Origin: Enterobacteria phage CHB7
Strand: one strand, 5' to 3'
Sequence record: MK562504.1
Length of the DNA stretch: 64,000 bases
Below the pieces are notes generated by a model. The model worked only from the letters and a program-made list of their open reading frames with translations, had not been told where the DNA came from and made no database searches. Shown here piece after piece: positions 17,814-25,760 of the stretch. The position numbers and the translations under genes are program-made. Positions within the stretch are counted from its first letter, which is position 1; every line of letters begins with the position of its first letter.

Positions 17814-20969
<3,156 letters not shown>

Positions 20970-20970
<1 letters not shown>

Positions 20971-23213
20971 TATTCTTCCTCTGGGTAACTTGAGTTAAGA
21001 AGGATATCTTCTTGGTTCTTGTCCATGATATCAACCGTCTTAGTAGCAATCTGCTTACCATCCAGATTAAATGAGACATTCAGGGTCTGTTTAGTTTGCA
21101 TAGGGAAGCCAGAAGGTGTCATCATCATTGGGGTTTGGTTGAACTTATTGGCAAAGTTATTTAAAGACTCTGACAAGTTGTTCATGATAATATCCCAATT
21201 AGACATTCCATTATCAACAAAGCTACGATTACCTTGAGCATCTACAGAGTATTGCGCAAACTGTAGCTGTCCATTCTGGTCAAAGAACATCGGACGTTTA
21301 GGGTTGGTAATGCTTGATACAGCGTCTTCAAAAGGTTTTGGAAGGTTGACTTCGTTAAATCTACCATTATTCTTACTGTCTGTAGAACCAGACAACATCA
21401 ATGATGACCCGACTGTACCAAGAGCCATTCGGGTTGCTGTGACTCCTGCAACACCTGTAGCTGTTTCTGCTGCTGTAGCTGCACCACCTAAACCAAACTT
21501 CTGCATAATTTTTGCAAAGATACCTTCTTCAAAGATACTCTTAACAAATGCTACAGTACCACCAAAGATTTTTGCAACCTTGTTAATAGCAGCAATTGCA
21601 GCACCAATCATAGCAAAGGTTGAAACGAGTTCAGCAGAATCCTTGATAAGTTTCTGTTGACTTGCATCTAAATCCTTGTACCATGCCATTGCAGAGTAAT
21701 ATAGTGAAGATGTTCTGTACATGATATCTGTTACGAAATCAAGTAAGTTACCAGCACCTTTTAACAGGTAACCAATCACAGTCCCAAGTGCTTCAGCAGT
21801 ACCCATAGAACCTTGTAAGAACATTGCAATGGATTGTGAAAGTTGTGAAATACCATCGCTAGAGTTGTTAAACAATGCAACTAACATGTTATCCCACATA
21901 GACTTTGCTTGACCCATTGAGGTAGCTGTCTGCTTAGATACGGCATTCATGCCACCTGCTGCCTGTACCAACTCAGCCATCTTTTCAGATACCTTTGGCA
22001 GTACATCTTCAGCAAGAAGTTTACCGTCCTTCATCATCTTATCAAGTTCTTGTGGTGTCTTCCCGATAGCGTCAGCAAATAGCTGTACAGCACCTGCCAA
22101 ACGGTCACCTAACTGACCACGAAGTTCTTCAGCCTGAATCTTACCCTTAGAAGCCATCTGTTGGAAAGCAACCATGATACCTTTCAGGTCTTCGTCTGTT
22201 GCACCCCTGATACGGGAGAACATCGCAGCGTTCTTATAGAACTCCTGAGTTCCTTGGAATCCAAGAGCAGGTTGAGCACCAGCAGCAAAGTTTGAGTATT
22301 GCTTCATGGTGTCTGTGTAGTTCTGTCCAATCTGATGAGCGAATGATGCAGCGAACATTCTAGCTTGCTGTGTATCTGCTCCAAAGATAGCTGTTGAGGC
22401 TAACTGTGCAGACTGTCTTTTTACACCTGCATCAATCGTCTTCTGAGCCAGTTCCAAGGCTGCATAAGCTGAAACAAAACCACCAATCATCTGACGTAGA
22501 GATGAGTTAGCTCTTTCCTGAAGCCAAGCTGATTCTCTGACTGACTTGAGTCTAGCATTTTCTGCAATAACCCAACGCTTGGTAACGTCAATGAGCTTTT
22601 TGACTTCCATCTCATATTCACCGACTTTACCAGTTCCCTTATATTTGTTATAAAGACCCTGCAAGTTCCCTCTGAAGGAAGCTGCCATTTGGTTACCTTG
22701 TCCACCAATAGTTTCAAGGCGACGTGTCAGACCAGAATAGAAGTTGTTGTTGAACATTCTTTCCATCTGTCTCTGAGCAATATCAGGTCTTGCAGGTCTT
22801 GGGTTACCACTTCCACCAGTAGGAGGGAAGCCAGTACCACCTTTTCTACCGCCACGAACAGTGACTTTTCCATCAACTTTCAAAGCGTCTCTTAAAGCCT
22901 TGTTAATTTCCTTGGCAGTTTTTCTACCTTGAGTTTCCAGTCTTTTAAGAGATTTAACACCTTGTGAATCAAGGTTAAGGGAGTTGTTGAGTGCTTTATT
23001 GATTCTGCCCGAAGCAGTCTGAGCGTTTTTTACAATTCTGTTTAATGCTTCCTGTGAAGACTTATTAGGTTTCACATCAAAGGCTTTGTTGATATTACGT
23101 TCGATTCGTTGAGCAGACTGCATAGCCATCTTTTCAACTCTCTGCAAACCTTTAACAACCTTTTCACTGAAACCCAACTCCACAATAAAGCTGTCAACTG
23201 TATATTGTGCCAT
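20970..23213 (-). CDS. tail tape measure protein
   Basis: 747 aa; long helical, Ala/Gly-rich central region; downstream of chaperone pair. Confidence 0.8.
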
Positions 23214-23452
23214 TAAATTTTACCTGCCCTTCTAAGTTCGTTATAAGCAATTTCTTCTTTGTATGACCTCTGGATTTCTAAATATTGTCGCAGAGATAAT
23301 AAATCAGAGAAAGTCATTGAGAAGAGTTGGTCGAGTGTTTCTTTACACCCTTCCATACCGTAAATAGCAAGCACAAATTTCATCTCATCTGCTTCTTCAT
23401 AAGTTGCTTCTACAGCCCCATCAGTCAATGGGGTCTGCATAGCACTACTCAT
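23213..23452 (-). CDS. tail assembly chaperone, downstream frame
   Basis: 79 aa; its frame is open upstream into the preceding ORF in the -1 register. Confidence 0.45.
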   Translation of the reverse strand: MSSAMQTPLTDGAVEATYEEADEMKFVLAIYGMEGCKETLDQLFSMTFSDLLSLRQYLEIQRSYKEEIAYNELRRAGKI

Positions 23453-23454
23453 GC

Positions 23455-23865
23455 TTACTGAGAAGTTAGGCTTTTGAAAATGCTTGCTTCGAAAAAACTT
23501 CCGAAATTAGCCTCCAGAGCAAATGCCAAGAAGTCAATAAATTCACCGTAGTTTGCTTGGAAGTATTTATCTACGTTTAGAGGGAAGTCATCTACAGTTG
23601 CACCTTGGAATAGCAGAGCAGCCATTGAGTCAATATCGAGTTCATCAATACGGTCAAAGCAAGCTTCAACTAATTCTTTGAAAGGTACTGCTGTCACACT
23701 TTCTTCACCTTCTTTCTGCTCTTTCCCAGATAAACTTGAAAACATCTGAGCAATTGTCGGTACAACAACTTTACCGAGTTTCATCGACATTTTAATACCA
23801 TCTCTTGCACCCAGCAGGACAATATTCACTTTCTTACCATTAATAATTTTGCATTCTGTCTTCAT
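23455..23865 (-). CDS. tail assembly chaperone
   Basis: 136 aa acidic protein between tube and tape measure. Confidence 0.5.
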   Translation of the reverse strand: MKTECKIINGKKVNIVLLGARDGIKMSMKLGKVVVPTIAQMFSSLSGKEQKEGEESVTAVPFKELVEACFDRIDELDIDSMAALLFQGATVDDFPLNVDKYFQANYGEFIDFLAFALEANFGSFFEASIFKSLTSQ

Positions 23866-23945
23866 TGTGATTCCTTAAATTTCTTAGGTTCTATAAACGA
23901 AAAAAAGGGAAGACCTTTTACAGTCTCCCCCTTATTAGGATGTTC

Positions 23946-24392
23946 TTAAACACTTGACGCAGGAATCGTAGAAGTGTAGTCTAGCTTCTCACAACCAAAA
24001 ATCCAAGTTTTAGAGTTCTGGTCACGACCAAGTTCAATCTGTGGAAGTTCCTGCAACCATGCGTTAATACCAGTTGCCAGAACAGAGCCAGATGGGTCGT
24101 AGATTACGAAGTTAGAAGAGATATCTTCTTCAAGTTCCATGTCATCTTGTTTAGCTTGAATCGCAGAAAGCATCTGGTTAGAGAGTGAAGTCTGCATTAG
24201 CTCAATCTCAATAGTACCTGTCTTATCTGCGTTTCTTGTCAGAGCTACCTGACCACCTGCACCAACAACTGGTGTAACAAGTGGAGAAGTTCTCTGAAGA
24301 CGTAAGAATGAATCTGGAGCAAAGCCTTCGATGGCAATACCATTCCAGCTACATACAACGTCTTTAGGGGAATATTGCTGATACATAGCCAT
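23946..24392 (-). CDS. tail tube protein
   Basis: 148 aa immediately downstream of sheath-sized ORF. Confidence 0.55.
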   Translation of the reverse strand: MAMYQQYSPKDVVCSWNGIAIEGFAPDSFLRLQRTSPLVTPVVGAGGQVALTRNADKTGTIEIELMQTSLSNQMLSAIQAKQDDMELEEDISSNFVIYDPSGSVLATGINAWLQELPQIELGRDQNSKTWIFGCEKLDYTSTIPASSV

Positions 24393-24407: not shown

Positions 24408-25760
24408 TTATTCGTAAGCCACTGTACCTTTCAAGTCAACATCCAAGATAGCACCTGCTAAGATACCTGCGAAGGTAACATCTTTCAGGATACGAGCTTT
24501 CTTGTCTGCCAAAGCAACTTGAGAGGCTTTAGGAACATTAACTGTGTAAGATGACAGGAAGTTTCTGTTAACTGCTCTTTGCAGAGAGGTTTCAATGACC
24601 TGACGAATACGGGTAATACCTGTATCATCATAAGTAATCTTACCACCCTTCTGATTAATTAGCAAGTCTCTCAGAGAAGTTTTCAAGTCAGATTCTAGCC
24701 AGTCAACACCACGGATGATATCAATCCATTCACCACCAGAAGTGACACCTCTACGTACAACTGGAACACCACCATCAAGGTCGATGAAGTTGCAGTGACG
24801 TACATCCAAAGCGGATTTCTGAATGCTTGTCAGAGGTCTCTGGTTAGCTGGCTGAAGAGACGCTTCAACACCAGTCAACTGAGCATTACCCCAAGCAATT
24901 GAACCTGCATCATACGGAGCACCGTAAGCGATGTAAGCCATTTCTGGGTAATCATAGGTAGCAGTGTGATGCCACAAGCAGACTGTACGAGTGTACATGC
25001 TCTTGGCAAGCTGTGCAGGAACATCAGAAGCTGATTCTAGTTCGGTTCCTTGCAGGGCAGCTACATCTGCGTTTGCTGTGAAGAAAATCTTCTTACGAGC
25101 CTGAATTTCTGAAGCCATTGCCAAGATGAACTGAGAAGTTCTGTCTTCAGCAGAGATGAAGTACCAATCTGTAGAGTACGTCTCAATAGCAGCCAAAGCA
25201 CTTGCAGCAGTGTCAGAAGTTGTAGCAGCGATTGATACAGAGCTTGTAGTTGAGGTAACTTTTACAAAGTCATTGTCACCAGCTTTTGTAACAATCATGG
25301 TTGCGGAGCTACCAGTACCAGTTACGTTGATAGTAACATCATCTTTGATTGTTGGGTCAGCTTCAATCTGGTCTTTAAACTGCGTCAGAACAATCAGAGC
25401 AGTGTCATCAGCTTGTGCAGTGTATTGGTATGGCTGAGAAACGCCACCACCTACAGCAATCGTCAGAGAGTAATCTGTACTTTCAGCTACTTCATCAGGG
25501 ATTGACACTGTGTACTGCATAGCACGTCTACCAATATATAGCTGAGTTACTTTTGGAGTTTGGCTCCATAACTGTCTTGCAGCTTTATAAGCAGCAGAGT
25601 TTTCATCGAAATCTTCAGCAACTTCAGTCAGAGAGGTATAGCCACGAACCCTTTCTTCAAAGTTGTCAGTTGACGCTAAGAATAATGGTAGACCAAAACC
25701 TTCTCTCGTAGTTCCTGCGGTGTTCAATGTAATATCTACATTAACAATTGGATTCCACAT
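24408..25760 (-). CDS. tail sheath protein
   Basis: 450 aa upstream of tube/chaperone/tape-measure; positional and size inference. Confidence 0.6.
   Translation of the reverse strand: MWNPIVNVDITLNTAGTTREGFGLPLFLASTDNFEERVRGYTSLTEVAEDFDENSAAYKAARQLWSQTPKVTQLYIGRRAMQYTVSIPDEVAESTDYSLTIAVGGGVSQPYQYTAQADDTALIVLTQFKDQIEADPTIKDDVTINVTGTGSSATMIVTKAGDNDFVKVTSTTSSVSIAATTSDTAASALAAIETYSTDWYFISAEDRTSQFILAMASEIQARKKIFFTANADVAALQGTELESASDVPAQLAKSMYTRTVCLWHHTATYDYPEMAYIAYGAPYDAGSIAWGNAQLTGVEASLQPANQRPLTSIQKSALDVRHCNFIDLDGGVPVVRRGVTSGGEWIDIIRGVDWLESDLKTSLRDLLINQKGGKITYDDTGITRIRQVIETSLQRAVNRNFLSSYTVNVPKASQVALADKKARILKDVTFAGILAGAILDVDLKGTVAYE

Follow-up and report, generated by a model that had tools for sequence, protein, structure and literature searches.

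A conserved T_TTT_TTC heptamer and a predicted -1 ribosomal frameshift in the tail assembly chaperone locus of Enterobacteria phage CHB7

Two adjacent open reading frames of Enterobacteria phage CHB7, ORF1 and ORF2, most likely form a single recoded tail assembly chaperone gene of the lambda G/GT type, in which a -1 ribosomal slip at an in-phase T_TTT_TTC heptamer would join them into a fusion protein. We put the probability of this reading at about 85%. The heptamer lies inside the overlap between both reading frames, and it is conserved in related phages down to 25% protein identity. The analysis was carried out on a stretch of 64,000 nucleotides of CHB7 DNA (record MK562504.1), which will be referred to as the window; all coordinates are positions in it.

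Gene organization of the chaperone locus

The window derives from a Suspvirus, a Felix O1-like myophage. It shows 98.8% identity to Escherichia phage SUSP2 (Suspvirus, Ounavirinae), and Felix O1-like phages are about 87% identical to the region; Suspvirus has been placed within Andersonviridae. The genes of the locus are all transcribed from the minus strand, in the order sheath, tube, ORF1, ORF2 and tape measure, with the predicted chaperone pair located between the tube and the tape measure genes:

24408..25760, minus strand: tail sheath gene, 450 aa (PF11863 DUF3383 and phrog_205, tail sheath)
23946..24392, minus strand: tail tube gene, 148 aa (PF11681 KPP10_Orf10 and phrog_280)
23865..23455, minus strand: ORF1, predicted short chaperone (G / TAC-N), 136 aa, frame 0 (ORF list, Pfam, PHROG, AlphaFold/BFVD)
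23452..23213, minus strand: ORF2 in its usual annotation, 79 aa, starting at its own ATG (ORF list, phrog_4963)
20970..23213, minus strand: tape measure gene, 747 aa (PF20155 TMP_3 and phrog_4036)

The ATG of the tape measure gene and the stop codon of ORF2 share the A at 23213 (TAATG). The tube gene is annotated in related records as DUF3277 or as virion structural protein.

Chaperone functions were predicted for both ORFs from profile searches. ORF1 matched the Pfam family PF21822 Phage_TAC_15 (E=1e-21; 78.2 bits, the cut-off being 22) and also phrog_1613 and phrog_3840, both of them tail assembly chaperone groups, and ORF2 matched phrog_4963 (tail assembly chaperone) with E=9e-54. An AlphaFold model of ORF1 (pLDDT 81.7) was compared with BFVD, whose matching entries are themselves predicted models that carry chaperone annotations; the best match was a deposited frameshift fusion, the "Tape measure chaperone" (212 aa) from Citrobacter phage Moogle. 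Among solved structures, a sequence search of the PDB returned no match for the chaperone, and a Foldseek comparison of the G-domain (ORF1) model with the PDB returned none at E<=0.001. Natural in-frame G-T fusions were absent from the homology search, in which 100 out of 100 matches were ORF1-type proteins of 123-140 aa.

A slippery heptamer inside the overlap of the two reading frames

The start codons of ORF1 and ORF2 are 413 nt apart, and consequently ORF2 is in the -1 (+2) frame relative to ORF1. An earlier note on this DNA, made from the sequence alone, had proposed a tail chaperone pair at 23213-23452 and 23455-23865 in which the frame of the second ORF extends upstream past the stop of the first without interruption. 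Both ORFs are present at these coordinates on the minus strand, and the ORF2 frame is indeed open from 23506, that is, 18 codons 5' of the ORF2 ATG, crossing the ORF1 stop (23457..23455) and overlapping ORF1 by 49 nt. A +1 frameshift was ruled out, since the +1 frame closes after 3 codons. Stops occur in the -1 frame of the genes of the window at a rate of 0.109 per codon, which gives P ~0.16 for 16 open codons; taken by itself, the open overlap is unremarkable.

The same note had reported no canonical XXXYYYZ heptamer near the junction. This was mistaken: the search for slippery sites that it had recommended revealed one in-phase heptamer in ORF1, located inside the overlap and followed by an open -1 frame up to the tape measure gene:

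23497..23491, minus strand: slippery heptamer T_TTT_TTC (X_XXY_YYZ), at ORF1 codons F124 and F125
23213..23491, minus strand: -1 frame after the predicted slip, from CGA (R126) to the TAA at 23215..23213, 92 codons, predicted to encode a linker and the T domain (frame translation)

In frame 0 the surroundings of the site read GGA AGT TTT TTC GAA, where AGT TTT TTC code for S123, F124 and F125. Alternative slip sites were sought in the overlap, and other in-phase heptamers were absent from it. Moreover, this is the only in-phase T_TTT_TTN among the 10,301 codons of the long minus-strand ORFs of the window. The chance of finding any in-phase heptamer within a 16-codon zone is 0.05-0.11, and it is because of its conservation in relatives (see below) that the site is lifted above chance. 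Motifs of the H_HH.U_UU.Y type are among the most efficient -1 motifs in E. coli (Sharma et al., PMC4066793). The particular sequence U_UU.U_UU.C shifts at >0.1% without stimulators, is under-represented in E. coli genes and is used by IS elements (PMC4066793).

From this arrangement we infer the following course of translation. Most ribosomes would reach the ORF1 stop and release the short chaperone of 136 aa. A minority would slip back one base with the P site over TTT (F124) and the A site over TTC (F125), and both tRNA-Phe would re-pair perfectly with TTT TTT after the slip. Translation would then continue in the -1 frame, from CGA (23491..23489) to the stop 23215..23213. The predicted G-T fusion would have 217 aa: the first 125 residues of ORF1, then a linker of 13 residues (RSKHFQKPNFSVS), then all 79 residues encoded by ORF2.

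Conservation of the site in related phages

The comparison took in nine annotated phages, which represent six genera or subfamilies. An in-phase T_TTT_TTC within an open -1 frame is present in SUSP2, mistaenkt, Shy, Felix O1, Moogle, Arno162 and phiEa104, and the same site and open -1 frame are found in the Vequintavirinae phages UPEC06 and P7_Pc, at 26-31% protein identity. In these nine phages the -1 frame runs 76-90 codons beyond the ORF1 stop, up to the tape measure gene. A wider set of relatives, at 25-99% identity, was obtained from IMG/VR by means of the peptide patterns FALEANF and F..NYG.., which are independent of the heptamer. In this set, 59 of 70 loci carry an in-phase T_TTT_TTN inside an open -1 frame. 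When distinct relatives are counted, T_TTT_TTC occurs in phase in 51 out of 69; about 15 of these 69 divergent relatives have non-canonical sites (C_CTT_TTC, or GTT_TTT_TCA out of phase), which fall at the homologous (S/D)(F/L)F motif.

At the nucleotide level, the 12-mer AAGTTTTTTCGA (23500..23489), which contains the heptamer, is the sole invariant run of at least 8 nt in the 653-nt locus among 34 distinct Ounavirinae sequences. Conservation of frame-0 third positions is 0.95-0.975 around AAGTTTTTTCGA, versus 0.33-0.87 in the upstream bins of ORF1. Part of the conservation of the T run is accounted for by the invariant protein motif GSFF, together with dual coding.

Measured from the slip site, complete Ounavirinae loci have a -1 ORF of 92-94 codons, and the range over all relatives is 75-123 codons. 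The ORF1 stop lies 13-50 codons past the slip site across relatives; an ATG in the -1 frame is either absent or first encountered 13-78 codons past it. Since the ORF1 stop is variable and the ATG is variable or missing, whereas the T region is conserved, the T region would be reachable in all lineages only from ORF1.

A -1 frameshift has already been annotated in a sister genus. The genome announcements of phages Moogle and Michonne describe a -1 translational frameshift in their tape measure chaperone (PMC4319497, PMC4591319), and the Moogle record holds a joined CDS for the frameshift product. These phages (Mooglevirus, Ounavirinae) resemble CHB7 in their orthologous proteins (76% identity) and are identical to it in T_TTT_TTC, the flanking GGAAGTTTTTTCGA and the gene order. 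They differ in that the ORF1 stop of Moogle comes 3 codons later and is followed by no ATG, whereas the window and Felix O1 have an ATG 2 nt on, and in that the joined CDS of Moogle contrasts with SUSP2 and mistaenkt, the nearest relatives of the window, which are annotated as having two genes. Gene order, the PF21822 and phrog_4963 matches, the conserved slip site and this sister-genus annotation all support the proposal of the earlier note of a tail chaperone pair with a -1 frameshift.

Candidate stimulatory elements

Upstream of the heptamer, a Shine-Dalgarno-like element was identified on the basis of its conservation, rarity and spacing:

23511..23515, minus strand: GGAGG, 13 nt 5' of the heptamer, possible 5' stimulator

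Of 47 homologous contexts (48 minus one off-target match in L006), 30 have GGAGG at 13 nt and 9 more have GAGG. Most contexts without GGAGG carry GAGG or AGGAG at about equal spacing, and two relatives with a differing peptide at this place (LKEN or MKEN) have AAGGAG at 11 nt; an upstream GGAGG-like element is missing in Kolesnikvirus and Vequintavirinae. GGAGG is rare in the long minus-strand ORFs of the window, with 5 occurrences (1.6e-4 per nt), and GAG accounts for only 30% of their Glu codons. The spacing reported for Shine-Dalgarno elements that stimulate -1 shifts is 9-14 nt (review PMC5009743). We consider GGAGG a probable enhancer of the frameshift, which may raise the slip rate via pairing with 16S rRNA.

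The earlier note had also suggested looking for downstream structures, and no conserved 3' structure was found after the heptamer. The 51 nt past the heptamer fold at -8.6 kcal/mol (z=-0.12), no better than shuffled sequences; folding 91 nt past it gave no significant structure near the site; and the first 60 nt, folded in 15 relatives, showed no consistent structure. A stable hairpin does exist about 48 nt downstream of the heptamer (23443..23406). It was rejected as a stimulator, its RNAalifold consensus energy being about zero over 11 distinct sequences, and it is lineage-specific and too distant for a canonical element. The slip would take place without any 3' RNA stimulator. Since a 3' stimulatory structure is absent, frameshift efficiency may be low. 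The E. coli dnaX gene is similar to the CHB7 locus in having an internal Shine-Dalgarno-like element 9-14 nt 5' of its heptamer, but it also needs a 3' stem-loop and uses A_AAA_AAG, whereas the CHB7 site lacks a 3' structure: no stem-loop or pseudoknot of the dnaX type was found 5-9 nt 3' of the CHB7 heptamer.

Alternative explanations

ORF1 and ORF2 could be two independent genes, in which case termination-reinitiation coupled to ORF1, at the ORF2 ATG (23452), would be the only source of ORF2 protein and no fusion would be made. Such an arrangement would agree with the position of this ATG, 2 nt past the ORF1 stop (TAA GC ATG) in the window, SUSP2 and Felix O1, and with the two separate CDS of most GenBank records. 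However, no Shine-Dalgarno sequence was found ahead of the ORF2 ATG, and the ATG itself is not conserved: L027, a Felixounavirus contig, has ATA in its place, and Moogle, Arno162, phiEa104 and Vequintavirinae lack it, their first -1 frame ATG coming 17-63 codons past the slip site. All the ATG-lacking relatives keep the -1 frame free of stops as far back as the heptamer, and FFRSKHFQKP, the -1 frame peptide encoded 5' of the ATG, is kept between genera. Because its start codon is not conserved, independent translation of ORF2 is unlikely to be the sole route to the T region, and two genes without a fusion are improbable. Some reinitiation at TAAGCATG may nevertheless occur in Suspvirus and Felixounavirus.

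A fusion might also arise at the level of transcription, if RNA polymerase added one U at the T6 run and ordinary translation of this transcript gave G-T. The site is a homopolymer run, extended to T7-T8 in some relatives, but the 6 T of CHB7 compare with about 9 A or T for productive bacterial slippage (PMC5009743). In addition, the run is kept in X_XXY_YYZ codon phase with Z = C (the 51/69 relatives mentioned above); some relatives have only T4 (C_CTT_TTC), at which A-site re-pairing is possible and polymerase slippage is not; and the Shine-Dalgarno-like element at 13 nt fits a ribosomal mechanism only. Transcriptional slippage is, accordingly, a very improbable origin of the fusion. The probability that the open overlap and the heptamer are functionless and came together by chance appears negligible. 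Neither of them is rare in a single sequence (P ~0.16 for the overlap; 0.05-0.11 for an in-phase heptamer), but the arrangement persists across families whose proteins are 25-30% identical, with the heptamer inside the only invariant 12-mer of the locus, and these comparative data effectively refute a chance origin.

Discussion

Programmed -1 slippage at T_TTT_TTC, the reading that we favour, would make the CHB7 locus comparable to the lambda gpG/gpGT system (Levin, Hendrix and Casjens, 1993; Xu, Hendrix and Duda, 2004, 2013, 2014; summarised in PMC5009743). Sequence similarity between the lambda and CHB7 pairs is undetectable, and the two phages differ in tail type, lambda being a siphovirus and CHB7 having a contractile tail with a DUF3383 sheath. 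Slippage in lambda takes place at G_GGA_AAG. If the two parts act as they do in lambda, the G part would coat the tape measure protein, the T part would recruit the tube protein, and the frameshift rate would fix the G:GT ratio. Among myoviruses, the E/E+E' chaperone pair of phage P2, located upstream of the tape measure gene, reportedly also undergoes a -1 shift, said to have been described by Christie and colleagues in 2002. Its heptamer is reportedly poly-T as well, T_TTT_TTG, differing from the T_TTT_TTC of CHB7 in the last base.

A conserved poly-T site has also been described in more closely related phages. The accessible text of a 2025 study of Pseudomonas phage Adele (Pakpunavirus, Vandenendeviridae; PMC12846349) reports that GTTTTT is invariant towards the 3' end of TAC-N, both in 56 Vandenendeviridae alleles and in 231 Andersonviridae phages. 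It shares with the present analysis the conserved poly-T slip site near the TAC-N 3' end and the uninterrupted -1 frame. That text differs in giving GTTTTT only, without the X_XXY_YYZ phase, the upstream GGAGG or the absence of a 3' structure. The papers searched for Felix O1-like phages and rV5 contained no experimental demonstration of a fusion protein, nor data on a low fusion ratio, on a requirement for it in tail assembly or on the absence of both proteins from virions.

The predicted frameshift is the standard G/GT recoding, already predicted for the Felix O1-like family. Only three points are modestly new: the precise codon phase of the slip site, the finding that no 3' structure follows it, and the conservation of GGAGG upstream. 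Tentatively, we suggest that the rate might be set by the internal GGAGG, through dnaX-like pairing with rRNA, and not by a 3' structure, and that in Suspvirus and Felixounavirus the ORF2 ATG may add free T by reinitiation, so that G, GT and T would all be made; this extension is considerably less certain than the frameshift itself.

The main value of these results is for annotation. SUSP2, mistaenkt, Shy and Felix O1 are still recorded with two separate genes at this locus, as are the phages in most of the ~300 related GenBank records, instead of one recoded gene with products of 136 aa and 217 aa joined at T_TTT_TTC. Some of the related records are misnamed, e.g., as "head closure protein" or "tape-measure protein". 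The conserved GGAGG adds a small testable point on what may govern the G:GT ratio in phages with contractile tails, and the phages concerned serve biocontrol and phage typing.

Profile Matches and the Slip Site in Relatives

The predicted 217-aa G-T fusion of the window, which joins the short tail-assembly chaperone ORF1 to the T region ORF2, matched the phrog_3840 profile with 148.9 bits in an alignment reaching position 157 of 158, and ORF1 alone scored 133.6 bits against the same profile in an alignment ending at position 136. The match of the fusion beyond the end of ORF1 implies that some phrog_3840 members include the continuation in the -1 frame.

At the homologous site of environmental relatives (loci L046-L057 and L067), the canonical heptamer is replaced by C_CTT_TTC, C_CTT_TTT or GTT_TTT_TCA. 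In these loci the -1 frame is still open, with an extension of 66-77 codons, and the replacing sequences are possible non-canonical slip sites. The junction region also varies in a Felixounavirus contig (L027; IMGVR_UViG_3300045988_004167), which carries ATA in place of the ATG of ORF2 but retains both the heptamer and an uninterrupted -1 frame.

Other Features of the Window

Two predicted hairpins flanking ORF1 and a second gene pair with an open -1 frame were located as follows:

23406-23443, minus strand: stable hairpin within the 5' portion of ORF2, with a centroid energy of about -20 kcal/mol
20173-20970 (upstream gene) and 19832-20173 (downstream gene), minus strand: gene pair
23904-23933, minus strand: terminator-like hairpin of 12 pairs with a T-run after it

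In the predicted fold, the hairpin in ORF2 sequesters the second in-frame AUG of this gene. Its stem shows an A-U to G-C change in Citrobacter phage Moogle, but Felix O1 has a disrupted inner stem, and no consensus for the hairpin was obtained by RNAalifold across relatives.

Gene pairs within the window were compared by requiring the -1 frame of the downstream gene to be open over 49 nt or more ahead of the stop of the upstream gene. Apart from ORF1/ORF2, this was found solely in the listed pair, where the frame is open for 67 nt and an in-phase C_CCA_AAC starts at 20197. The downstream gene has its ATG at 20173, overlapping the stop of the upstream gene, an arrangement that looks like ordinary translational coupling.

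Database Records of Relatives

Names of ORF1 orthologues in GenBank/UniProt are in places inconsistent or wrong: "head closure protein" in C600M2 and VpaE1 variants, "tape-measure protein" in BPSELC-1 and "putative tape measure protein" in Sf13. In Erwinia phage phiEa104 (L007; NC_015292, 1-672), the T region is annotated merely as a 114-nt ORF, and the tail sheath is split into two adjacent CDS (gp056 and gp057), probably by a sequencing or annotation frameshift. Records labelled with Campylobacter, Listeria and Staphylococcus hosts also matched the window locus, among them Campylobacter phage A132 (MG065664; 87.5% DNA identity) and Listeria phage LPML1 (OK283618), which encodes an ORF1 homologue with 46% protein identity; such labels look like doubtful hosts or contaminated samples.

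Hairpin Between the Tube Gene and ORF1

The terminator-like hairpin lies within the 80-nt gap separating the tube gene stop from the ORF1 start, and it may bring about transcription attenuation between the abundant sheath and tube genes and those for the chaperone and the tape measure.
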